Part shown: positions 17,545-63,043 of the stretch, in pieces
Layout: every line of letters starts with the position of its first letter
How positions within the stretch are numbered: the first letter of the stretch is position 1
Assembly: GCA_028694995.1 (NCBI GenBank)
Contig: JAQVJU010000001.1
Location: forward strand, 80,492 to 144,491
From: Minisyncoccota bacterium
GTDB taxonomy: Bacteria; Patescibacteriota; Minisyncoccia; UBA6257
Reading direction: 5' to 3'
DNA: 64,000 nt
Program-made: the position numbers and the translations under genes
Notes under the pieces: generated by a model
What the model saw: only the letters and a program-made list of their open reading frames with translations
What the model was told of the DNA's origin: nothing
The model's database searches: none

Positions 17545-18405
17545 ATGTTTCTGTCTTTAAATCAATATTGTAATTTTAAGAATATCACTCTGTTCTTGAT
17601 TGTATTCATCTGTTGTTTAAATTTTAGTCAAGGATTAGTTGTTGAGGCTGCAAATAATTTTTCCTCTGAAGTAGTTGAATTAGATGCTAAGAATTCAGTA
17701 ACGGAATTAATTAAATATCTAGTTCAATGGGCTTTTAGATTAGCTGGATTATTCGCTTTTATTATGATTATTTATGCTGGATTTCAATATCTTACTGCTG
17801 GGGGAAATGTTGAACAACAAAAAGAAGCTCAAGAAAGAATTTTTAATACTTTTATTGGAATTGTTTTATTGTTTTCTTTCTGGCTTATTCTAAATCAAAT
17901 TAATCCTAATATCCTCCAAACACCAGAACCAAAACCATCAACAGCTAAGCCATCAGTGGAAACAGAACAATTACCAGTAACTGTAGGTAATTTTGTTTTA
18001 ATTGGAGCAGGCTCTGGTAAATATTCTAATATCCCATTGAGTTGGGAATTTCCCAATGGTGCTTATATTGAAGAAAGCGTTGCTGAAAGTTTATTGAACT
18101 TAGCTAATAGTAATGCCCCAAAAGGATGGCAAGTCACAGAAGCTTGTGTCTCAATCATTGGAAACGAGTGCGTCACTACAGTCCACCATGTGTCAAATTG
18201 CCATAAAATCGGTACTTGCGTTGATGTAGGATTTGGTGGAGACCCAGGTATTTCAACAAGAGCAGCTTTCATTAAAGCTGCTAATACCTCTGGTTTTGAT
18301 GTTATCGATGAATATTCAGCTGCAGGATCCCAATATGGAAGTGGTTTCCATCTTGAAATTAATATGCCTAATTGCAAAACCGGTGGTGCCTTCTTTTGCT
18401 CTTAA
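17545..18405 (+). CDS. TrbC/VirB2-like pilin-domain protein with C-terminal Cys/His-rich extracellular domain
   Basis: It has a signal peptide, then two hydrophobic helices separated by a short polar loop (FRLAGLFAFIMIIYAGFQYLTAGGNVEQQKEAQERIFNTFIGIVLLFSFWLIL), typical of conjugative pilin folds. A ~150 aa C-terminal domain follows, with HHVSNCH/GTC/CKTGG. Confidence 0.4.
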   Translation: MFLSLNQYCNFKNITLFLIVFICCLNFSQGLVVEAANNFSSEVVELDAKNSVTELIKYLVQWAFRLAGLFAFIMIIYAGFQYLTAGGNVEQQKEAQERIFNTFIGIVLLFSFWLILNQINPNILQTPEPKPSTAKPSVETEQLPVTVGNFVLIGAGSGKYSNIPLSWEFPNGAYIEESVAESLLNLANSNAPKGWQVTEACVSIIGNECVTTVHHVSNCHKIGTCVDVGFGGDPGISTRAAFIKAANTSGFDVIDEYSAAGSQYGSGFHLEINMPNCKTGGAFFCS

Positions 18406-20299: not shown

Positions 20300-21670
20300 A
20301 TGGATTTTCAAGAGCTCTGGGAATCAGCTTTAGGAGAAATAAAATTAAATATTTCTAAAGCTAATTATTTAACTTGGCTTAAAGACGCTTTTATTGTGGA
20401 TTTTAAGGAAAGTACTATTTTCTTAGGCGTCCCTTCTAATTTTACAAAAGAATGGTTAAAGAATAAATACAATAAACAAATCTTAGGCGCTCTTTGTAAT
20501 TTAGAACCCACAATAAAACAAATTGAATACATTGTGACTACAGACAAGACCGCTCTAAAGAAAATTAGTCAGGTTAAAAAAAAGCAATCTATTCAATCAA
20601 AAAAAACATCTGTTCTTGATGAACCTTTGGAATTTAATATTGATCCAGATACTAATTTAAATCCTAAATATACTTTTGAAAATTTTATTGTGGGTACTAA
20701 TAATGAATTGGCTAATGCTGCTGCTTTAGCCATTACAGAAAACTTAGGTAGTAAATACAATCCTTTGTTTATTTATGGCGGTGTCGGATTAGGGAAAACC
20801 CATTTATTACAGGCAATTGGTAATCGATTAAAATCAGAAAATAAAAAACTAAAAATTAAATATGCTTCTTCTGAAAAATTCACTGATGAGCTTATTAATG
20901 CTATTCGTAATCAGAAAATGACTGATTTTAAAAAAAGTTTCCGTAATTTAGACTTACTTTTAATAGATGATATTCAGTTTATTGCTGGAAAAGATAAAAC
21001 TCAAGAAGAACTCTTTCATACTTTTAATAATCTGCATGGAAAAAACAAACAAATTGTTTTTACTTCTGATCGGCCACCAAAATCCATTCCTTCAATTGAA
21101 GAACGTTTAAGATCTCGTTTTGAAGGAGGGATGATTGCTGATATTGGTTATCCTGATTTTGAAACTCGTTTGGCTATTTTAAAAGCCAAAAGTCAGGAAG
21201 TCAGTCATTTAATTGGAGAAGATGTTTTAAAATATATTGCTGAAACTATTTCTCGTAATATTAGAGAATTAGAAGGAGCTCTTAATAGAGTTATTGTTCA
21301 TGCTCGATTAAAAAATGGAATGATTACCATAGATGAAGTAAAAAAAATCTTATCTTCAATTTTAAATAAGGCTAATCAATATATTCCACCTAAGGAAGTT
21401 ATAAAAAAAATTGCCTCTTTTTATGACTTAAGTGAAAGTGAAATTTTAGGACATTCAAAAAAGAAAGAATTAGTAAAACCAAGACAAATTGTAATGTATC
21501 TTTTAAGAGAAGAATTTAAATATTCTTACACTAATATTGCTGAGAAAATAGGGAATCGAGATCATACTACAATTATCCATGCTTATAAAAAAATTGATAA
21601 AGAAATAGAAGAAAATCCAGTATTTGCTCAAGAAGTAAATATCTTAAAAGAGATAATTTATAACAAATAA
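20300..21670 (+). CDS. dnaA: Chromosomal replication initiator protein DnaA
   Basis: It has AAA+ motifs (GGVGLGKTHLLQAIGN, LLLIDDIQFIAGK) and a C-terminal DNA-binding domain. Confidence 0.95.
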   Translation: MDFQELWESALGEIKLNISKANYLTWLKDAFIVDFKESTIFLGVPSNFTKEWLKNKYNKQILGALCNLEPTIKQIEYIVTTDKTALKKISQVKKKQSIQSKKTSVLDEPLEFNIDPDTNLNPKYTFENFIVGTNNELANAAALAITENLGSKYNPLFIYGGVGLGKTHLLQAIGNRLKSENKKLKIKYASSEKFTDELINAIRNQKMTDFKKSFRNLDLLLIDDIQFIAGKDKTQEELFHTFNNLHGKNKQIVFTSDRPPKSIPSIEERLRSRFEGGMIADIGYPDFETRLAILKAKSQEVSHLIGEDVLKYIAETISRNIRELEGALNRVIVHARLKNGMITIDEVKKILSSILNKANQYIPPKEVIKKIASFYDLSESEILGHSKKKELVKPRQIVMYLLREEFKYSYTNIAEKIGNRDHTTIIHAYKKIDKEIEENPVFAQEVNILKEIIYNK

Positions 21671-21939
21671 TTCCTTGTTGATATTTGGTGAATAAATTGT
21701 GTTTTAAAAGTGAGTCTTCTGTTGTATAAACTAAGTAAATCATTTTCATCTATTTTAACCCACTTTTTATTCTCAAAATATCCAATAGTTTTCAACATTT
21801 TATCCCTATATTAATTCATTAGAAAAGACTTAATAAAAACATTAAAAACATTTATCCCCAAAAAAAACAAGTTCTTAATAATAACAATAATTTATATTAT
21901 ATATTAATTTATTATTAAAAAATTAAAATAATTAAAAAT
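21671..21939. promoter_or_regulatory. Putative oriC (dnaA-dnaN spacer): DnaA boxes plus AT-rich unwinding element
   Basis: TTATCCCTA sits at 21799-21807 and TTATCCCCA at 21852-21860. A nearly pure A/T stretch lies at about 21880-21935. Confidence 0.5.
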
Positions 21940-23076
21940 ATGAAATTTACTACTTTAGTGGAAACAATTAAAAAAGCAATTAATTCTGCTGAGAAAATAA
22001 CCGGGAAAAATTTAACCCTTCCTGTTTTAAGTAATATCCTTTTAAAAACAAATACAAATAAACTTCATATCTTTGCCACTGATTTGGAAATTGGAATTGA
22101 GTTAGTGATTACTGGAAAAACTGAAAAAGAAGGTAAGTTTGTTATTCCAGCTAAAACTTTTTCTAATTTCTTGAATAATCTTTCAGAAGAAAAGATAAGT
22201 TTGGAAGAAAAAAACAATAATCTGATTGTTAAAAGCGGAAAATACAATACAACTTTTCAGGGATTTAATCCTGAAGAATTTCCTATTATCCCAGAAACAA
22301 AAGCAGATAAGTATATAGAAATAGGAAAAAGTGATTTTGAACAAGCTCTAATTCAGATTTTACCAAGTGTGAGTTATTCTTCTCCTAAGGCTGAATTAAA
22401 TGGAGTTTTGTTTAAATTAGAAATCTCAGAAAGTAAAAATACATTAAAATTAGTGGGCACAGATAGTTTTCGTTTAGCAGAAAAAATATTTCCTTCTTCT
22501 CAAGTAAAAACAAATATTAAAAATGATATTGAAGTAATTATTCCTTTAAGAACCGCTCAAGAAGTTTTAAGATTAGTTCAAGAGAATATGGAAAATGATG
22601 AATCTTTAATTAGAATAACTCCTGAATCAAATCAAATTCAATTTTCTTTTTCTAATATTCGGGTTATTTCACGCTTAATCAATGCTGATTATCCAAAATA
22701 TTCCTCAATTATTCCTAAGGATTTTGAGAATAAAATTATCTTTGAAAAAAAAGAATTAGCTGAAGCAGTGAAGATAGTGGGTTTATTCAGTGGTCGGGTT
22801 AATGATGTTAAATTCAGTTTTAATCCTGATAAAAAAGAGATTATTCTTGAAGCTCAAGATCTGTCTTTAGGTAAAAGCCAAACGGTATTAACCCCAAAAG
22901 AAATATCAGGCAATGCTTTAGAAATCAGTTTTAATTACAGGTTCTTACTAGATGGATTAAATGCTATCAAGAACGAAGAAGTTTTTATTGGTTTGAATAA
23001 AGAATCAAATCCTGGATTGATTAGAGATAAAGATAGTGATAATTTTGTATATATCTTAATGCCGATAAAGATTTAA
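21940..23076 (+). CDS. dnaN: DNA polymerase III beta sliding clamp
   Basis: The 378 aa protein has a three-domain clamp pattern. It is positioned after dnaA. Confidence 0.9.
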   Translation: MKFTTLVETIKKAINSAEKITGKNLTLPVLSNILLKTNTNKLHIFATDLEIGIELVITGKTEKEGKFVIPAKTFSNFLNNLSEEKISLEEKNNNLIVKSGKYNTTFQGFNPEEFPIIPETKADKYIEIGKSDFEQALIQILPSVSYSSPKAELNGVLFKLEISESKNTLKLVGTDSFRLAEKIFPSSQVKTNIKNDIEVIIPLRTAQEVLRLVQENMENDESLIRITPESNQIQFSFSNIRVISRLINADYPKYSSIIPKDFENKIIFEKKELAEAVKIVGLFSGRVNDVKFSFNPDKKEIILEAQDLSLGKSQTVLTPKEISGNALEISFNYRFLLDGLNAIKNEEVFIGLNKESNPGLIRDKDSDNFVYILMPIKI

Positions 23077-33069: not shown

Positions 33070-33957
33070 TTAATTTAACGTATCTACAAAAAATACTCGT
33101 TGGCAAAAGGCACTAATCCCTATGCCATTAGTAGCATTAGTTTGTATTCTGTAAGTTGGTACGTTGTTTATATAAATAGTGTATCCTACACCTGAATCTT
33201 TTTTAGCCTCGATTAGATGAGCGATTTTTACTTCTTTTTCTATGGGTTTATAAACAACTGTGCCTTTTGAATTAGCGATAATTACATAAAGATCTTCGTC
33301 TTGAGCATCTAAGATAAAATTTAAAAACTTAGATTTATCTTCTATTGGCAAGTTATTAAAAGCCTTTAAGCATAACTTATTAAGTTTTAATTGGTATTGC
33401 TGGCCATTATTTGTTGCCCATTTTAGTAATTTCTTATTTTCTAGAATCTTTTTCTTTAATTCACTTTGTGATATTTGAGGTTTATCTATATATTTTTTTA
33501 GTTTCTGCCACATTTCTTTATACTCAGGTTCAAAATTTATACCTAAATATTTTTTTAAACTTCTCATTCCTAGATTTTTTATTGTTCCAGTTCCGCTTTG
33601 AGCAATGGATTTTATTGAGAATCTTGTAAATTTATGAGTTATGTGTTCAGTGTCCACGTCCGATGTTGTTTTTATGGTGAGTTTTCTGCCTACCCATAAT
33701 ACCTCAATAATTTTTCCTTTTTTTGATATTTCAAAATCCAAAATATCTTTTAGAATTTTAATTAATTTTAATAAATTATCGTTTTGTAATTTTAATCGTT
33801 CTTCCCCGTTCGGTAATTCAAGAACCTGATTAGATAATAAAGCTAAATTTTTACTATAAACAAATCTAATATTGTAAAGATGGCAAATATACTGAACAAT
33901 TAATAATTCAAAATAATCTGCTTGGGCTCTATTTGATTTAACTTTTCTGTTTTTCAT
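33070..33957 (-). CDS. Putative restriction endonuclease partnered with adjacent MTase
   Basis: The 295 aa protein overlaps the 3' end of the MTase gene by 20 nt (operon). It has a possible PD-(D/E)xK-like D..D.EH..HK segment. There is no confident family match from sequence alone. Confidence 0.35.
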   Translation of the reverse strand: MKNRKVKSNRAQADYFELLIVQYICHLYNIRFVYSKNLALLSNQVLELPNGEERLKLQNDNLLKLIKILKDILDFEISKKGKIIEVLWVGRKLTIKTTSDVDTEHITHKFTRFSIKSIAQSGTGTIKNLGMRSLKKYLGINFEPEYKEMWQKLKKYIDKPQISQSELKKKILENKKLLKWATNNGQQYQLKLNKLCLKAFNNLPIEDKSKFLNFILDAQDEDLYVIIANSKGTVVYKPIEKEVKIAHLIEAKKDSGVGYTIYINNVPTYRIQTNATNGIGISAFCQRVFFVDTLN

Positions 33958-35407
33958 ATTTTTTTATATACTTTATGATTATTTTATTAATACTATTTTG
34001 ATATTTTTTAAAGTCAAAGGCATAATTTTTCTTTAAATTATCAATAATAAATTTCGAAGTTTGGGAAATTTGCTTTAAATCCTTTTTAGAAAATTTTAGC
34101 ATTGGTAATTTCCTAATATCTCTTATTTGAATAGAATTAGTATGGTTTATTATTTTGATTAATTCATTATATGGTTTACTGTTTAATAACCCTATAAAGA
34201 AGTAAACAGGATATTTTCTTGGATTTTTTGGGAAAAAGCACATTGCTTTATTACTTTCCCACATTGCTCCTTTATAGGCTAAACGAGCTGAAAGGCTAGA
34301 GCATACTCCTGATATAATGAACCCCTGTTTTTCTTTATATTGTTCCAACCCATTTAGCATTTTATATTTTTTTATTACTTCTTTGTTCCATTTAATAGCA
34401 TATTTGGGTTTTTTATAATACTTGTTATTTCCACCGGTTTTGTGATATATTTTCCAACCATTTCCTTGTTTTATATTTTGGAACAATACAATATTCTTAT
34501 TTTTTTTATTCAATTGAATATTTTCGTCTTTGTAATCTATTAGTGCTAAATATTGCTTATTATTAGTTGTATGCATACCAAGTCCTCCTTCTAAGAAATC
34601 TACTAATTTTTCATTAGCTGAAGTTAGAACATTTAAGAGGTTAATATTATTTTTAAAGTAGAAAACATAATCTGGGTATTTTAAAATATCTAATTGAGAA
34701 ACCATCCAGATTTTTCCTTTATAGTCACCTAATTCGTTTTTTCTACAATCATTAAATTTAATTTTATGATTTTTAGGAAATTTATTTTTAACCAAATGAA
34801 TAATACTGGTTTGGATCATAGTGCCACTATCTTTAAATAAGGATGGGGGACAAAGGGTAATTTCCTTAATAGTGAAATTATTTAGAATCCAATATCTTAA
34901 TTTTTTATGAATTCCAAGAGTTCTATAGGTATCACTTATTATGAAAACAAGTTCACCATTTTGAGATAAAAGATTGCCACATAAGTAAATAAACATAGCA
35001 TATGTATCGTTAACTCCTATTTCCTTATAGATTTTTTTAAGTTTATTTTTATTGTTTTTAATATATAAGCTTTGTTTATTTAAATAGGGTGGATTTCCAA
35101 TAACATGGGTAAAGATAGGTTGAAATGATGATTTTAGATTTGTTTCTAAAAGTGTGTCTTTTACTGTAAATTTTACGCCTAAGTTTTTAATGTTTTTCTC
35201 TACTTGTAGATTTATGTCCCATACTTCAATTTGCTTAGGTTTTAAGAGTTTTTTATTTAATATAGATTTAATAAAAATTCCATCGCCACCACATGGCTCA
35301 AGAAGTTTAGCTTTTTCATTTAATTTATTAAATAAGCTAATCATATAACTTGCTGTGTGGGCAGGAGTATAAAATGCACCCAAATCTTTTTTTAATTGTT
35401 TATTCAT
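33938..35407 (-). CDS. N6-adenine-specific DNA methyltransferase (gamma-class, TaqI/Eco57I-like)
   Basis: It has N-terminal DLGAFYTPAHTASYM (the FxTP motif) and a catalytic NPPY (VIGNPPYLNKQS). Confidence 0.8.
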   Translation of the reverse strand: MNKQLKKDLGAFYTPAHTASYMISLFNKLNEKAKLLEPCGGDGIFIKSILNKKLLKPKQIEVWDINLQVEKNIKNLGVKFTVKDTLLETNLKSSFQPIFTHVIGNPPYLNKQSLYIKNNKNKLKKIYKEIGVNDTYAMFIYLCGNLLSQNGELVFIISDTYRTLGIHKKLRYWILNNFTIKEITLCPPSLFKDSGTMIQTSIIHLVKNKFPKNHKIKFNDCRKNELGDYKGKIWMVSQLDILKYPDYVFYFKNNINLLNVLTSANEKLVDFLEGGLGMHTTNNKQYLALIDYKDENIQLNKKNKNIVLFQNIKQGNGWKIYHKTGGNNKYYKKPKYAIKWNKEVIKKYKMLNGLEQYKEKQGFIISGVCSSLSARLAYKGAMWESNKAMCFFPKNPRKYPVYFFIGLLNSKPYNELIKIINHTNSIQIRDIRKLPMLKFSKKDLKQISQTSKFIIDNLKKNYAFDFKKYQNSINKIIIKYIKKYEKQKS

Positions 35408-48492: not shown

Positions 48493-48545
48493 AAAGATGT
48501 AAGTTGCAGAACTTTTTAATAATTGTTAATATAATTTTTATTAAT

Positions 48546-49571
48546 ATGGCAAAAAAATCATTAAAGACAATAAAAAACAAACCAGAGAATAAAGGAACAA
48601 AAGAAGATCAGGTTTTAGAACAAACCTTGAAAGATTTACAAGATAGATTTGGAGAAGGAGCAATAATGAAATTAGGAGGGGTTAAAAAAGTTAATGTTGA
48701 TGTTATTCCTACTGGTTCTCCTTCTTTAGATTTAGCTCTTGGAGTTGGTGGAATCCCTCGTGGCAGAATTACAGAAATTTATGGCGCTGAGTCTTCAGGC
48801 AAAACAACATTAGTTCTTCATATTGTTGCTGAAGTGCAAAAAAAAGGAGGTAAGGCTGCTTTTATAGATTCAGAACATGCTCTAGATCCAGATTATGCTC
48901 AAAAGATTGGAGTTAAAGTTAAGGATTTATTAATTTCCCAACCAGACAATGGAGAACAGGCCTTAGATATTGTTGAGTCTTTGGTTCGTTCAGGAGTTAT
49001 TAATTTGATTATTGTTGATTCTGTGGCCGCTTTAACACCACAGGCTGAGATAGAAGGAGAAATGGGAGATCAGACCATAGGTTTGCAAGCGCGTTTAATG
49101 AGCCGGGCTTTAAGAAAATTAACAGCCATTGCTGCAAAAACCAACACGGCAATCATTTTTACTAATCAGACAAGGATGCAAATAGGAATGGTTATGTTTG
49201 GCAATCCAACCACAACACCAGGAGGCAAGGCATTAAAGTTTTACAGCTCAGTCAGGATTGAATTAAGGAGAACCGCTCAGATTAAAAAAGGCGATGAGAT
49301 TATTGGTTCGCGAATTAAAGCAAAAGTGGTTAAGAATAAAGTGGCGCCTCCATTTAGAGAAACAGAATTTGATATTCTTTATAACGAAGGAATATCTTTT
49401 AGCGGTGATTTATTAAATTTGGGATTAAAAAAAGAAATAGTAACAAAATCTGGATTGACCTTTAGTTTTGGGGATATAAAGTTAGGGGCTGGATTTGAAA
49501 CAGCCAGAAATTTCTTAAAAGAAAATCCAAAGATAGCAAAAGATCTTTGGCAACAAATAATAAAAACATAG
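48546..49571 (+). CDS. recA: Recombinase RecA
   Basis: It has Walker [11 protein letters not shown] and the L1/L2 loop regions. The start chosen is MAKKSLK (the track starts at 48504). Confidence 0.95.
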
Positions 49572-54480: not shown

Positions 54481-54553
54481 AGGGGCGTAGCTCAATTGGC
54501 AGAGTAGCGGTCTCCAAAACCGTTGGTTACAGGTTCGAGTCCTGTCGCCCCTG
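54481..54553 (+). tRNA. tRNA-Trp (anticodon CCA)
   Basis: AGGGGCGTAGCTCAATTGGCAGAGTAGCGGTCTCCAAAACCGTTGGTTACAGGTTCGAGTCCTGTCGCCCCTG has an anticodon loop CTCCAAA. Confidence 0.8.
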
Positions 54554-54558
54554 CTCAT

Positions 54559-54582
54559 AAATCGCTTTAAGGGCGATTTTTT
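54559..54582 (+). terminator. Intrinsic terminator after tRNA cluster
   Basis: AAATCGC-tttaagg-GCGATTT is followed by TTT. Confidence 0.6.
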
Positions 54583-54597
54583 GATACAATAAAATAC

Positions 54598-55527
54598 ATG
54601 GAAAATATTATTGAAGTTAAACAATTAAAGAAAGATTTTGATGGTTTTGATGCAGTGAATAATATTACCTTTAATGTGAAAAAAGGTGAGGTTTTTGGTT
54701 TGTTAGGACCTAATGGAGCTGGCAAAACCACAACCATAAGAATGTTAATAGGAATATTAAAACCAACTCAAGGTGAGGTTTTTATAAAAGAATACAATGT
54801 TAGGAAAGAACCAATTAAAGTAAAGCAAATAATGGGAATTGTTCCTGAATTTGCTGATGCTTATACAGATTTATCTGCTTTGAGAAATCTTTTATTAACT
54901 GGAGAATTATATGGAATAGAAAGAAAGAAAAGTATTCAAAAAGCTATATCTTTATTAAAAAAGTTTGAATTATATGAAAAAAGACATCAAAAAGTAAAAA
55001 CTTTTTCAAAAGGAATGAGGCAGAGATTGATTTTAGCCATGGCCTTAATGAATGATGCAGAAATTTTGTTTTTAGATGAACCCACCTCTGGATTAGATGT
55101 AGAAAGTACAAGATTAATCAGGCAACTTATTAGAAAATTTAACAAAGATGGGGTTACTATTTTTCTTACTACTCATAATATAGAAGAAGCAGATTTACTT
55201 TGTGACCGAGTGGCCATAATGAATCAAGGGAAAATTATAGCTATTGATCGCCCTGAATTATTAAAAAACATTATGAAAAAGATTTCTTCTATAGAAGTGG
55301 CTTTTAAAAAAGATTTAAAGGAGGAAGATTTGTATTTTAAGGGAGTTGAAAAGGTTAATAAGATGGGGGATAAATTTCGTATATTTGGTGAAAAAACATT
55401 AGAGATTATTCTCTCTTTAATAAAATATTCTAGAAAATCTGAAAATGAAATCATTTCTTTAAGAATGATAGAGCCAAGTTTAGAAGATATTTTTGTAAAA
55501 TTAACAAATAAAAATGAAAATCCTTGA
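54598..55527 (+). CDS. ABC transporter ATP-binding protein (ABC-2/export type)
   Basis: It has Walker A GPNGAGKTT, the signature SKGMRQRL and Walker B LFLDEPTSGLD. Confidence 0.85.
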   Translation: MENIIEVKQLKKDFDGFDAVNNITFNVKKGEVFGLLGPNGAGKTTTIRMLIGILKPTQGEVFIKEYNVRKEPIKVKQIMGIVPEFADAYTDLSALRNLLLTGELYGIERKKSIQKAISLLKKFELYEKRHQKVKTFSKGMRQRLILAMALMNDAEILFLDEPTSGLDVESTRLIRQLIRKFNKDGVTIFLTTHNIEEADLLCDRVAIMNQGKIIAIDRPELLKNIMKKISSIEVAFKKDLKEEDLYFKGVEKVNKMGDKFRIFGEKTLEIILSLIKYSRKSENEIISLRMIEPSLEDIFVKLTNKNENP

Positions 55528-56254: not shown

Positions 56255-56304
56255 GAATAATTTATCTACAACAAATTAGGAGTTTTAGTTAGTATTTTTG
56301 TCAG

Positions 56305-56333
56305 TTGACCAATTTATATTCTAGTGGTATTAT
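56305..56333 (+). promoter_or_regulatory. Sigma70-like promoter copy A (TTGACC-N17-TATTAT)
   Basis: The consensus hexamers have 17-nt spacing. A near-identical copy lies at 57626-57654. Confidence 0.5.
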
Positions 56334-56389
56334 ATAAGATATCTTTTTGGGAATATTTTTTCTTAAAAAGAAAGAACTTTACAAAAAAA

Positions 56390-56533
56390 ATGAAAGAATC
56401 GATAAAAACAGAGCTTCAAAATCAAATTCAAGTATTGGAGCAAGAACAAATAAGAGTCGAAAATTTTATAGGAGAACAAGAAGGAAAGTTTAATTTATTT
56501 AGCTGGTTGATAAAATGGTTTAATAACGGCTAG
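56390..56533 (+). CDS. Small coiled-coil peptide (47 aa)
   Basis: The protein is MKESIKTELQNQIQVLEQEQIRVENFIGEQEGKFNLFSWLIKWFNNG. The ATG sits within the conserved leader. The track ORF 56324 has an implausible N-terminus overlapping the promoter. Confidence 0.35.
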   Translation: MKESIKTELQNQIQVLEQEQIRVENFIGEQEGKFNLFSWLIKWFNNG

Positions 56534-56629
56534 TTAATTTAGTTAGAAAAAAATAAATTTTAAAAGAGTAATCCATTAGAAGAAAACCCCGATAAAATAA
56601 AACATTATTTCGATAAGTAAGTTTGAGCG

Positions 56630-56645
56630 TTATCTATTAGGCTCT
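56630..56645. repeat. 16-bp direct repeat TTATCTATTAGGCTCT copy 1 (copy 2 at 57282-57297)
   Basis: The copies match exactly over 16 nt. The flanking AGC-N also matches. Confidence 0.6.
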
Positions 56646-56761
56646 GCCAAATATTGACTTTTAACATAAAATATGGTATATTTATAATACTCTAAAATAG
56701 AGTATTTTTAGTTCTTTAACAAAAATTAAAATATAAAAATTATAAGAAAGGAGAGAAGATA

Positions 56762-57196
56762 ATGGAAAATAAGATTAAGTTTTTTAATGATTTAAAAGAT
56801 TTGCCAAAAAAAGAAGAAATTCTTGAAATGAAGGTTGCAAAATGGATAAAATGGAGATATGATTTTGTGCCTGCTACAAGAGAAGGAAATAACTTCAGTG
56901 TATTAAACTTTGGACATGTGGAACAAGGGTTTCAAGAGATGGAACCAAATATTGTTGCAATTTTGGACCCAAAATACTGCTGGTTCGTTAGATTTTTCAT
57001 CGTCGAAGATTATGATGTTATAAGTTTAATCAATCTAAGCGATAAAGAAAATTGGACTATGGAAATATATGGTCGGGCGTATGTTGACTGTTTAACAAGA
57101 TTGGCAAAAAAGATGGCAAGAGATTTTAATGTTTCAATATCTTGTCATCTAGTCAAAGAAAAACCAGGATTTCTAAGTATTCCATACGTATGGTAA
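56762..57196 (+). CDS. Hypothetical protein (144 aa) in repeat-flanked cassette
   Basis: It has a strong RBS AAGAAAGGAGAG. No recognisable domain is present. Confidence 0.4.
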   Translation: MENKIKFFNDLKDLPKKEEILEMKVAKWIKWRYDFVPATREGNNFSVLNFGHVEQGFQEMEPNIVAILDPKYCWFVRFFIVEDYDVISLINLSDKENWTMEIYGRAYVDCLTRLAKKMARDFNVSISCHLVKEKPGFLSIPYVW

Positions 57197-57226
57197 AAAC
57201 AAAAGTTAAAATTTCTTTATCAATAT

Positions 57227-57261
57227 GCCCCAACAAAATTATTAATAGTTGGGGCTTTTTT
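57227..57261 (+). terminator. Intrinsic terminator
   Basis: GCCCCAAC-14 nt loop-TTGGGGC is followed by TTTTTT. Confidence 0.6.
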
Positions 57262-57281
57262 ATATTAAACAGGTTTAAGCA

Positions 57282-57297
57282 TTATCTATTAGGCTCT
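57282..57297. repeat. 16-bp direct repeat TTATCTATTAGGCTCT copy 2
   Basis: See copy 1. Confidence 0.6.
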
Positions 57298-57625
57298 ACT
57301 CATAAAATCGCTCTTAAAGGCGATTTTATGATTCAAATGAAGTTTATATAAAAAATAATGTTTAGGTTAAATAAAAGCTTTTAAAAATAACTTATCCACT
57401 ATTGACAATGCTCTTGCTTGCTATAAAATTTATATCAGAGGATTAATGGGTTGGTCTTCCATTTCCTTAGTAACTATAAAAAGAGTTTGAATTGTTTTTA
57501 ACAGTTTAAAATCTTTAAAAAATATGGCCAAAAAAAAGAAAGGCGGCAAAAAAAAGAAATAGTCGCTTAATGGAAATTGTTTAATCTGGCGTCAGTATTT
57601 ATTACTGGCGCTTTTTATTTATCAA

Positions 57626-57654
57626 TTGACTAATTTAGATTATAGTGTTATTAT
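57626..57654 (+). promoter_or_regulatory. Sigma70-like promoter copy B (TTGACT-N17-TATTAT)
   Basis: It is a paralog of the promoter at 56305. Together with the leader, about 80% identity extends over ~100 nt. Confidence 0.5.
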
Positions 57655-57734
57655 ATGAATACCTTTTAGGATAAAAATAATCTTAAAAAGAAAGAACTTT
57701 GACAAAAAAATATGAAAGAAAGGAGGTGATTTAG

Positions 57735-58271
57735 GTGAAAAAAGACAAGGAAAAAGAATTGCTTGATAAGACAGAAGTGTATGAAAGGAATATAAAAAAG
57801 ATTAAAAGCCATAGTTCTCTAGAAAGTGCTTACATAATTTTCCCTTATAATCAAAAAGAGCTTTTAGTGCCAGATAAGGATTTTTGGCTTGATATTACAA
57901 ACAAGATGAGCTTAAGGGATTTAATTATTTGCTCTCCAAATGCTTTGATAAATAGTCAACCAGAGATTGTCGAAAATCAATGTTTGATTACTGCAAATGA
58001 ATTTACTTTTAAATATTGGGAAGAAGTAAAGACTTACTTAATGATTGCAGGAATTACTAACTTGATAATTATTAGTTCTGATATACATCTTCCCAGGATT
58101 TTACGAGATTTTTCCTTTGTGTTTAAGAATAAAAGAGAAAATTTGCATGTGGGAATTAAAACAATCAGGATTGCAAATTCTTTTTGGAAAATGGTTTATA
58201 AGATTAGAGAGAGAATTGTTGCCTTACTTCCATTAAATTTTTATAAATATTTAGGAGAAGAAAGGATGTAG
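57735..58271 (+). CDS. DUF218 (YdcF/SanA/ElyC)-like domain protein
   Basis: ISSDIHLPRI resembles the DUF218 S..HM.RA motif. It has a GTG start with RBS AAGGAGGTGA. Confidence 0.35.
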   Translation: MKKDKEKELLDKTEVYERNIKKIKSHSSLESAYIIFPYNQKELLVPDKDFWLDITNKMSLRDLIICSPNALINSQPEIVENQCLITANEFTFKYWEEVKTYLMIAGITNLIIISSDIHLPRILRDFSFVFKNKRENLHVGIKTIRIANSFWKMVYKIRERIVALLPLNFYKYLGEERM

Positions 58272-58273
58272 AG

Positions 58274-58672
58274 ATGTTAAAGAATCATTTGGAAAGAAAT
58301 ATATTGAGAAATCGGCCGTATTTTGGAGGGCTAGAAAGTGATCAGGTTAGAAATATTCCTGATCTAAATCACTGCGACGAGGGAGAATGTATTCTAACTT
58401 TTAATATCCATTCAGGGGTAGGTGGATTATTTAAAGTTATTAGTTGTCCGTTTAAGGGTCAAGATGGTTATTGGCGTATTTTCTTAGAGGAACAAGGTCC
58501 TTATTGCAGAGTGCATGACATTCAAGTTAGATTAGATGAATATAGTGTAGTTTGTTATCCCAACCTTGAGTGGGAAAAAGAGTGGTGTTTTTTAAAAACA
58601 AGCATTACTGCTTTCAAAGAATTAAAGAAATTAAGAATACACAGGGAAGATTATCTTCCAGTGTATTATTAA
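58274..58672 (+). CDS. Cys-rich hypothetical protein (132 aa)
   Basis: It has HCDEGEC, ISCPF, PYCRVHD and VVCYP. It is translationally coupled to the upstream gene. Confidence 0.35.
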   Translation: MLKNHLERNILRNRPYFGGLESDQVRNIPDLNHCDEGECILTFNIHSGVGGLFKVISCPFKGQDGYWRIFLEEQGPYCRVHDIQVRLDEYSVVCYPNLEWEKEWCFLKTSITAFKELKKLRIHREDYLPVYY

Positions 58673-61828: not shown

Positions 61829-61902
61829 TGCGGGGTGGTGTAAAGGTAGCACGTCTCCCTTTGGAGGAGAAGATCGGGGTTCGAGTCCCTGCCCCGCAGC
61901 CA
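61829..61902 (+). tRNA. tRNA-Gln (anticodon UUG), CCA encoded
   Basis: TGCGGGGTGGTGTAAAGGTAGCACGTCTCCCTTTGGAGGAGAAGATCGGGGTTCGAGTCCCTGCCCCGCAGCCA has an anticodon stem TCTCC/GGAGA and a loop CTTTGGA. Confidence 0.7.
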
Positions 61903-61935
61903 ATTAGAGCCAGCTCAAAGATAGGAAAATACCTT
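61897..61935. repeat. 39-bp imperfect direct repeat copy 1 (overlaps last 6 nt of tRNA-Gln); copy 2 at 63005-63043
   Basis: CAGCCAATTAGAGCCAGCTCAAAGATAGGAAAATACCTT matches CAGCCAATTAGGGCTAGCTTAGAGATAGGAAAATACCTT at 35 of 39 positions. Confidence 0.7.
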
Positions 61936-61951
61936 TGAAAGGGTATTTTTT
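61926..61951 (+). terminator. Intrinsic terminator after tRNA-Gln
   Basis: AAATACC-tttgaaa-GGGTATTT is followed by TTTT. Confidence 0.6.
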
Positions 61952-62056
61952 GTTATTCAAGGTAATTTACTATATACTATAAATATATTGGTAAATTACC
62001 ATAAAGTTGAGCTAAAGTTTAGGATGTATATTTAAATTAAGTAATATAATAAATAA

Positions 62057-62704
62057 ATGAGTTATGGAAGACGAAAATGGGAACAGTCTCAGATGGTAAA
62101 TTGGAAAAAGAATGAGGATGAAATATCTTCTTTCTTTGGGCGATTTAATTTAGATGTCAGAGATTTATATAAACACGTTATGAGCATAGATTATGATAAG
62201 ATGCAGGCAGTTTGTTATTTATTAAGTAAAATAGATAAAGCCATAAAAATATGCGATTTCTTGGATGGGTTAGAAAGGGGTAACCATGAAGATGTCGATG
62301 TTATAAAAATTTATATTTTAGTATCTCATGCTGAGATTTCATCACGAAGTTTAGGCAAGGAAAAAACAGGAATAAAGCTTGTTAAGGAATTTTTTAGTCC
62401 CGTAGCATCAAGCTTAAAGCACAGGATAAAACCTAGCCTTATAAGTAAAAAGAATCTCAATTTGAATTTTGCCGATATCTTATACAAACTAAGATGTGAA
62501 TACACACACGAAGGAAATTATACGGGTAGAATCTTTAAAAGAAAAGAAGATGGAAAGTGTTTTCTTTCCATTCGTTTTAAGATCGATGATGAGTATTTTT
62601 ATGGAAAGTGCGATCTTGCGTATAAGGAGTTTATTGAAATTTATATGGAAGCTTTAATCGAAAACATAAAAAAATTCTCCAATTATGGAAAACAAAGCAA
62701 ATAA
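62057..62704 (+). CDS. Hypothetical protein (215 aa) with HEPN-like R-x4-H motif
   Basis: It has LRCEYTHEGNY (R-x4-H) within a predicted helical protein. There is no confident family. Confidence 0.35.
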   Translation: MSYGRRKWEQSQMVNWKKNEDEISSFFGRFNLDVRDLYKHVMSIDYDKMQAVCYLLSKIDKAIKICDFLDGLERGNHEDVDVIKIYILVSHAEISSRSLGKEKTGIKLVKEFFSPVASSLKHRIKPSLISKKNLNLNFADILYKLRCEYTHEGNYTGRIFKRKEDGKCFLSIRFKIDDEYFYGKCDLAYKEFIEIYMEALIENIKKFSNYGKQSK

Positions 62705-62993
62705 TATAAGGAATGAATTTTTAAGAAAATTTACTGATTTAGAAAAACATGGTTTTTACGATTTTGTTGAATTCGGTGGAAAAATTATTGGATTTACCAT
62801 AAAGAAAAAACTAAAAAGGGAAAAAGAGAATGCAAGTATGATAGCTGCGGGTATTTACAACGAAGAATCACCAGAAAGAACCCCTTTATACATCAATATT
62901 ACTTATGGCAAAGAAAAAAATGAAAGAATTGCAGTGCGTCTATGGGAGACATGTCTAAAATTACCTAATTTACCCTCACAAAAGAGGTTTTAG
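62685..62993 (+). CDS. Hypothetical protein (102 aa), overlaps upstream gene by 20 nt
   Basis: ORF only; it is a likely operon partner. Confidence 0.3.
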   Translation: MENKANNIRNEFLRKFTDLEKHGFYDFVEFGGKIIGFTIKKKLKREKENASMIAAGIYNEESPERTPLYINITYGKEKNERIAVRLWETCLKLPNLPSQKRF

Positions 62994-63004
62994 GCCGATT
63001 GGGA

Positions 63005-63043
63005 CAGCCAATTAGGGCTAGCTTAGAGATAGGAAAATACCTT
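63005..63043. repeat. 39-bp direct repeat copy 2 (putative attR-like site)
   Basis: See copy 1 at 61897-61935. Confidence 0.7.

Follow-up and report, generated by a model that had tools for sequence, protein, structure and literature searches.

Copies of a tRNA-end-like, att-site-like motif beside a one-gene cassette in a strain-variable locus of a Minisyncoccota bacterium

The window, the whole stretch of 64,000 nucleotides analysed here from a Minisyncoccota bacterium, has a GC content of about 31%. The genes around the repeats under study run in the order tRNA-Thr, tRNA-Tyr, tRNA-Thr, rpmG, tRNA-Trp, ABC ATPase, ABC-2 permease, ORF47, ORF144, ORF178, ORF132, PCMT, RF2, FtsE, FtsX and tRNA-Gln. 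A sequence-only reading had singled out two direct 16-bp repeats in this region, here called DR1 and DR2, and likened them to a target-site or attachment-site duplication around a small mobile cassette. The features of the locus are the following.

54481..54590, plus strand: tRNA-Trp (54481-54554) with its downstream hairpin, the reference site for the motif and flank copies
56297..56398, plus strand: repeat A1, duplicating the promoter and leader of ORF178, at the left edge of the 1,320-bp segment
56390..56533, plus strand: ORF47, a small, putatively coding ORF upstream of DR1
56614..56645, plus strand: DR1, a 32-nt motif like a tRNA 3' end, core 56630-56645
56654..56682, plus strand: promoter-like, sigma-70-like site TTGACT-17-TATATT with TG extension
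56661-56688, plus strand: alternative promoter TTAACA-16-TATAAT
56687..56705, plus strand: hairpin AUACUCUAAAAUAGAGUAU of 8 bp, then a U-run
56690-56704: palindrome ACTCTAAAATAGAGT
56750-56753: RBS GGAG, seven bases ahead of the ATG
56762..57196, plus strand: ORF144, the cargo gene, 144 aa
57227..57263, plus strand: intrinsic terminator of ORF144, GCCCCAAC, 13-nt loop, GUUGGGGC, UUUUUU
57266..57297, plus strand: DR2, second copy of the motif, core 57282-57297
57298..57399, plus strand: decayed copy of the tRNA-Trp downstream flank
57400..57617, plus strand: extra unit in the insertion, with promoter TTGACA-16-TAAAAT (57402-57429) and terminator 57588-57612
57618..57720, plus strand: repeat A2, the ORF178 promoter, leader and RBS, right border of the segment

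DR1 and DR2 share the exact 16-mer TTATCTATTAGGCTCT, at 56630-56645 and 57282-57297 on the plus strand, and no other copy occurs in the window when up to 3 mismatches are allowed. These two copies are as the sequence-only reading had reported them. So is the AGC ahead of each, with one variable base following it (AGCG / AGCA), and the promoter, palindrome, RBS, 144-aa ORF and terminator that it had listed inside the interval were all found. The likeness extends upstream, where 56614-56645 matches 57266-57297 without gaps at 27 of 32 nt, an exact 16-nt core preceded by arms that are only 11/16 identical. The bare 16-mer alone is not significant and lies within chance expectation: 24 of 100 windows simulated from a first-order Markov model held at least one exact direct repeat of 16 nt or more within 1 kb. 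The significance of the repeat comes instead from its extension and from its homologues elsewhere.

DR1 lies 3' of ORF47 and is directly followed by the ORF144 promoter, and DR2 starts 3 nt past the T-run of the ORF144 terminator and abuts the copy of the tRNA-Trp-type downstream flank. DR1 lies 2.06 kb past tRNA-Trp, beyond the intact, conserved ABC/permease operon. No real tRNA adjoins DR1 or DR2, and the end of the element does not abut an intact tRNA gene here; a tRNA-abutting end is present in the L016 island and in L099, both described below. No anomaly of base composition was seen. Terminal inverted repeats directly inside the direct repeats were looked for, and no inverted pair was found between 56646-56680 and 57240-57281.

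ORF144 encodes a small alpha/beta protein, recurrent in island or mobile-element settings, which NCBI lists as hypothetical and assigns to a Candidatus Pacebacteria MAG. Proteins of its family, which is uncharacterised, are about 125-170 aa long and share the motif W.FE.YGR..V...LA..M...F.V.I..L..E. Searches of Pfam, PHROGs and PADLOC with ORF144, ORF47, ORF178 and ORF132 gave nothing significant. ORF144 is the sole ORF of the element, in which no transposase was found. Its terminator has a GC stem, with the arms written GCCCCAAC...GTTGGGGC and followed by the T-run. The promoter is conserved in L084, a contig with a related gene, where it also follows a copy of the motif. The palindrome has a counterpart at the equivalent place in L084, ACCCTGTATAGGGT, in which a compensatory change from T:A to C:G keeps the pairing. 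The hairpin at 56687..56705 could be an operator, a 5' leader hairpin or a weak terminator. The ORF47 and ORF144 units are otherwise unrelated, so no simple tandem duplication has DR1 and DR2 as its ends.

The ORF144 unit is part of a larger segment bordered by A1 and A2, which are 82% identical over 104 nt. The start and first three codons of ORF47 (ATGAAAGAA) fall within A1; in the other copy of the repeat, ATGAAAGAA belongs to an ORF of 5 codons that lies upstream and overlaps the RBS of ORF178. The ORF178 homologues P0003 (81% aa identity) and P0005 (54%) mark relatives that differ here, and on all contigs carrying either of them the ORF178 homologue lies about 152 nt after the permease. 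These contigs align to the window up to 56394-56398 and again from 57617-57618, and their single permease-ORF178 intergenic region aligns both with A1 and with A2. The relatives thus lack a segment that the window carries as about 1,320 bp of extra DNA (about 56399-57617), made up of ORF47, DR1, the ORF144 unit, DR2 and 320 nt more, and it is bordered by A1 and A2 and not by the 16-mer. The sequence-only reading had predicted an empty site with one repeat copy. No such site was found, since the relatives miss the larger, A1/A2-bordered segment and carry no 16-mer, and presence or absence of exactly the DR1-DR2 interval was not seen in the strains or relatives compared.

The 20-mer AGCRTTATCTATTAGGCTCT gave three matches only in a metagenome scan, all to unrelated coding sequences by chance, and scans of viral contigs with the motif and leader as queries gave nothing or chance matches. 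Searches for identical copies of the ORF144, ORF47, permease and ORF178 proteins gave no empty site, all matches being to collinear contigs of the same species; every contig encoding the exact ORF144 is collinear with the window. A scan of genome contigs with the ABC ATPase identified one syntenic relative, L032, the remaining matches being non-syntenic.

The DR1-DR2 interval itself is invariant among strains of the species. The strains do differ in the flanks of the segment. The permease is 93.8% identical in L013-L015 and the ABC gene 94.7% identical in L003, yet these contigs are 100% identical to the window over 56399-56687 or 56255-57274. L008 and L009 are 100% identical over 57522-58672 and about 97% further right. 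The identity of the block, which reaches from A1 to about ORF132/PCMT, in strains with diverged flanks points to its recent exchange among them through homologous recombination. recA is encoded in the window. Exchange of this larger block is the only movement with direct evidence, and independent movement of the DR1-DR2 unit was not observed. Contigs of independent assemblies start or end near the repeats at 56649, 56666, 56687, 57274, 56386, 57522 and 57623. This cluster may reflect branching of the assembly graph caused by co-existing variants, but a simple DR1xDR2 deletion does not account for the positions.

The 320 nt to the right of DR2 have two parts. The flank copy at 57298..57399 is a composite of a hairpin (57300-57331), about 9 of the first ABC ATPase codons, the last permease codons with the stop, and about 18 nt of intergenic DNA. 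Over 79 nt, 57296-57374 is 75% identical to 54551-54624, where the hairpin and the first part of the ABC gene follow tRNA-Trp. The composite alignment has a score of 35.5, shuffles scoring 6.6 +/- 3.2, and the hairpin has a z of -4.25. The stretch 57298-57399 is thus a duplicated ABC/permease unit that has lost its interior. The unit at 57400..57617, whose promoter-like site is a strong one, is predicted to give a transcript of about 185 nt with a stable fold (z -3.6). Rfam gave no significant match for it, and the transcript holds only a 12-codon, Lys-rich ORF that has no RBS; it is possibly a small RNA. Beyond A2, at window positions 57735-58672, the ORF178/ORF132 pair is hypervariable (54-81% aa between lineages, with flanks at 88-97% nt) and may be an allelic, diversifying two-gene module.

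The 32-nt motif resembles the 3' part of a tRNA. Aligned to tRNA-Trp, the motif copies read ACAGGTTCGA, a 5-nt insertion, and then ..CC..T.G.CCCTGC. For DR2 the alignment is ACAGGTT..AG, the 5-nt gap, and TC...T.G.C.CT.CTCAT. The match to tRNA-Trp is about 22/27 with the 5-nt gap for L084, weaker for DR1 and DR2, and not uniquely best for Trp; for the copy c1, tRNA-Tyr outscores tRNA-Trp. The 3' end of the motif falls exactly at the boundary of tRNA and flank, marked here by a slash: in the window the tRNA reads ...CCCCTG/CTCATAAATCGC and DR2 ...GCTCTA/CTCATAAAATCGC, and in L016 the tRNA reads ...CCCCTG/CTTTTTAAAAGCC and copy c3 ...ACCCTG/CTTTTAAAAAGCC. The copies of L016, L084 and the window have in common the 5-nt insertion and the string ..TC[CT]A[CT]TAG..., derived features that are absent from the real tRNA-Trp. 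Because they share what tRNA-Trp lacks, the motifs would descend from one another. No symmetric cores are present in the motif alignment, and no stable or conserved fold of the motif was found; the DR2 region folds as a weak 7-bp stem only, which is missing from the centroid structure, and an Rfam search at DR1 and DR2 gave no match. A role as a tRNA-like RNA was rejected, given the placement of the motif after terminators, the lack of a stable fold and the Rfam result.

L016 and L032 belong to a sister species of the host (about 92% nt identity), with L032 being the GTDB representative, Paceibacterota STE_68. Both have a 3.66-kb island immediately after tRNA-Trp (L016 1443-5186; L032 5408-8995). 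At the borders of the L016 island, 111 nt of the DNA between the tRNA and the ABC gene are repeated at 84% identity, and a motif of about 30 nt follows each of its three unrelated genes: AGGTTCGAACTTCATCCACTAGGCCCTGC, AGGTTCTAATATCGTCTAACTAGGGGAGC and AGGCTCGAACTTCGTCCATTAGACCCTGC. Two island genes encode proteins of 569 and 387 aa made of Cys-containing repeats of about 26 aa, with a 78-nt period, for which Pfam gave no significant match. An HMM built from the three L016 motifs only was run over both strands of the 64-kb window, and its top three hits are a tRNA T-arm, DR1 (second) and DR2 (third).

L084 is a 1-kb contig from another organism, in which a five-sequence HMM identified a further copy of the motif (E 8e-5). 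This copy, ACAGGTTCGAACGTTGTTCATTAGTCCCTGC, lies just past the terminator of P0007, the closest homologue of ORF144 at 41% aa identity. It is followed by a promoter, palindrome and leader that are the same module as the one after DR1 (76% over 97 nt, E 2e-13). The L084 order of gene, terminator, motif and promoter is a circular permutation of the order in the window, as expected of a cassette attP or a tandem junction.

L099, L100 and L101 are from a different bacterium and carry a more distant ORF144-family gene, P0034, directly after tRNA-Leu. The order in L099 is tRNA, hairpin flank, promoter-gene-terminator, AACAGGTTCGCACTAATTCAAGAATAGAGCA, a second hairpin flank (81% identity) and 17 nt that exactly repeat the tRNA-Leu 3' end. 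AACAGGTTCGCACTAATTCAAGAATAGAGCA is a looser version of the motif, and it came from a pattern search, not from the HMM. In L081, two tRNA-Ala genes enclose the ORF144-family gene P0031, an HTH_Tnp_1 gene and a gene encoding a serine-recombinase domain. No such features were found around P0021 in L096. The motif is known from only about five independent sites in four genomes.

The repeats are most likely copies of an att-site-like, tRNA-end-like motif that lies at the downstream edge of one-gene cassettes in this host and its relatives. DR1 and DR2 themselves may well be att-type junctions of small, integrase-less cassettes of the CIME or tRNA-island-remnant kind, a reading in which we place moderate confidence. 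An exact 16-nt core between diverged arms fits a crossover inside an att core. The attachment-site half of the earlier suggestion is thus retained, given the family of att-like motifs downstream of single genes in tRNA-linked variable islands, and the half that concerns a transposon target-site duplication is given up: there are neither terminal inverted repeats nor a transposase, which excludes it. ORF144-family genes do recur as cargo at such sites. Neither mobility of the DR1-DR2 unit nor a recombinase was found: a Pfam scan of 30 other window ORFs identified no site-specific recombinase, and none was seen near the L016, L084 or L099 sites.

Under the att-junction reading, the motif of about 32 nt would mimic the 3' part of a tRNA from the start of the T-arm (ACAGGTTCGA) to the 3' terminus (CCCTG/C). 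Cassettes of Paceibacteria that have their own promoter and no integrase would accumulate at tRNA 3' ends, with the motif forming their downstream edge. The ORF144 cassette would be one of these, consisting of promoter, palindrome, leader, ORF144 and terminator. The resident site before its entry would have been ORF47 ... motif / tRNA-Trp-type flank, and the cassette would have come in through a site-specific crossover within the identical 16-mer, made by a recombinase that is encoded outside the window and acts in trans. DR1 would then consist of the resident left arm, the core and the cassette promoter, and DR2 of the cassette terminator arm, the core and the resident flank. What remains would be a relic of two cassettes, now 2 kb from tRNA-Trp and bordering on a degraded second copy of the tRNA-Trp flank and the ABC/permease operon, and its present-day spread between strains would occur only within the larger block, by homologous recombination. 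Precise loss between DR1 and DR2 would leave the empty junction GAGCGTTATCTATTAGGCTCTACTCATAAAATCGC (also given as ...GTTTGAGCGTTATCTATTAGGCTCTACTCATAAAATCGC), and an excised or tandem cassette would show the circle or tandem junction TTTAAGCATTATCTATTAGGCTCTGCCAAATATTGAC (also given as ...GGTTTAAGCATTATCTATTAGGCTCTGCCAAATATTGACT).

Homologous recombination may also have made the duplications with no site-specific recombinase involved, which we regard as possible, if clearly less probable than att-type junctions. DR1/DR2, A1/A2 and the flank copies would then be duplicated homology arms, produced either by additive (Campbell-type or homology-facilitated) integration from related strains or by unequal crossing-over or segmental duplication with deletion, and the motif would be a rapidly decaying, non-functional tRNA-proximal segment that was dragged along. 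Several findings count against the att reading. DR1 and DR2 adjoin no real tRNA, their likeness to tRNA-Trp in particular is modest, independent motif sites are few, the bare 16-mer lacks significance, and no recombinase was identified in the ORFs and neighbourhoods scanned. No DR-bounded presence or absence occurs among the relatives compared, and the other repeats are long, imperfect and include non-tRNA DNA (104 nt at 82%; flanks of 39-111 nt at about 75-90%), which makes them look more like products of homologous recombination than like integrase cores. The repeats at the observed indels (104 nt at 82%, 111 nt at 84%, 39 nt at 90%) span promoters, leaders and hairpins, and the empty alleles resemble hybrids of A1 on the left and A2 on the right. 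The internally deleted ABC/permease duplicate at 57298-57399, the presence of recA with no integrase among the window ORFs scanned, and the 100%-identical blocks within strain flanks that differ by 3-6%, a sign of very active exchange at the locus, are all in keeping with this explanation. It accounts less well for the motif. The derived features common to L016, L084 and the window, and their travel with the ORF144 family to tRNA-Leu elsewhere, speak for a site that was propagated and not for separate decay events. The exact 16-nt core with its 11/16 arms and the exact 17-nt tRNA-Leu copy in L099 are typical of att cores, and the unrelatedness of the ORF47 and ORF144 units speaks against a simple tandem duplication.

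The motif could alternatively be a functional cis-element, such as an upstream promoter element, a regulator site or a 3' end/terminator module, that is repeated for that function. Both in DR1 and in L084 the motif does directly precede the -35 box of a conserved promoter-palindrome module, and this non-coding module is better kept (76% nt) than the cargo protein (41% aa). All copies are also within about 100 nt downstream of a stop codon (about 230 nt in L099), after a hairpin. We nevertheless consider a cis-element improbable: DR2, c1 and c3 precede a terminator-type hairpin and not that promoter, and the motifs sit past intrinsic terminators and would hence be mostly untranscribed. They have no stable or conserved fold or Rfam match, and a cis function leaves unexplained why they are placed at strain-variable borders beside flank duplications. 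Chance, or a target-site duplication left by a transposon, is far less probable again and effectively already refuted. An exact 16-mer does recur at a distance of 1 kb or less in about 24% of the simulations, but the similarity here reaches 27/32, DR1 and DR2 both rank at the top of the window with an independent HMM, and other genomes have homologous motifs. For a target-site duplication 16 bp is long, and there are no terminal inverted repeats and no transposase was found.

The reading as att-type junctions can be set beside several known systems. Integron cassettes are single genes with a short recombination site, they occur in arrays, and they are moved by a recombinase encoded elsewhere; in the cassette circle the 3' site is joined to the 5' end of the gene, and L084 shows this same arrangement. 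The differences are that the present motif lacks the imperfect palindrome of attC and resembles a tRNA 3' end, and that the cassettes have their own promoter and terminator. An integron attC was ruled out for these reasons (no palindromic fold, own promoter), and an intI/attI/Pc platform was not found, with no integrase among the 30 other window ORFs scanned. It is conceivable, though we think it doubtful, that CPR/Paceibacteria own an integron-like but unrelated system of single-gene cassettes with tRNA-end-mimic sites, circles and a trans-acting recombinase. Each gene would have its own promoter and terminator and end in a site of about 32 nt; after excision as a circle it would be put back at a tRNA 3' end or wherever a copy of the site already exists, so that ORF144-family cargo would be shuffled among tRNA-Trp, tRNA-Leu and secondary sites, and among organisms.

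CIMEs keep attL/attR-like repeats from the 3' end of the target gene and have no integrase or transfer genes (Pavlovic et al. 2004; PMC5704250). The array ORF47, DR1, ORF144, DR2, flank in the window and the three gene-motif pairs of L016 are like CIMEs and their tandem accretion. In contrast to CIMEs, no integrase-bearing partner is seen here, the cassettes are single-gene units of 0.65 kb, each with a promoter, and the motif is a diverged tRNA-end mimic and not an exact copy; the window array is also no longer adjacent to the tRNA. In the tRNA-proximal islands of Prochlorococcus, each further integration at a site displaces earlier elements inward, and degenerate remnants and partial tRNAs stay behind all over the island (bioRxiv 10.1101/2020.12.28.424599). 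The likeness lies in the variable DNA beside tRNA genes and in a host whose genome is streamlined and poor in classical mobile elements. Tycheposons, unlike the present units, carry tyrosine recombinases and replication modules, none of which are seen here; the units here are far smaller, and the host is a CPR bacterium. Dehalococcoides has islands at the tmRNA gene ssrA, whose repeat is reportedly a faithful copy of the ssrA end. These islands share with the present locus the use of a small-RNA-gene 3' end, a streamlined genome and strain-variable cargo at a fixed site, but they span several kb and carry a recombinase gene of their own (PMC3146451).

In the best-supported view, then, a tRNA-linked island of a CPR bacterium here preserves remnants of small integrative cassettes, a known kind of element. 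Gene gain and exchange in the tiny genomes of the CPR are very little understood. If the att-junction reading is right, tRNA-end-like motifs would be a simple signature of accessory genes and recombination sites in uncultured CPR bacteria, and the uncharacterised ORF144 family would be recurrent mobile cargo. As it stands, the locus is a strain-variable hot spot apparently shaped by att-like junctions and homologous recombination.

The tRNA-Gln island of the window (61829-63043) has a direct repeat of 39 nt at 90% identity, 61897-61935 with 63005-63043, and the second copy has a degenerate tRNA-Gln 3' end, GGTTTTAGGCCGATTGGGACAG, ahead of it. The repeats enclose ORFs of 215 and 102 aa that have no Pfam match. 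With a pseudo 3' end and a repeated flank, this island has the same build as the motif islands. The related strain L008 parts from the window exactly at the tRNA-Gln end, and L001 encodes a DUF4268 protein, an N6/N4 methylase and a ResIII helicase downstream. Elsewhere in the window, the ranges 17545-18405, 20300-23076, 33070-35407 and 48504-49571 include the dnaA-dnaN origin region, a T4SS-pilin-like ORF, recA, and an Eco57I-like N6 methylase on the minus strand beside an unassigned 295-aa ORF.
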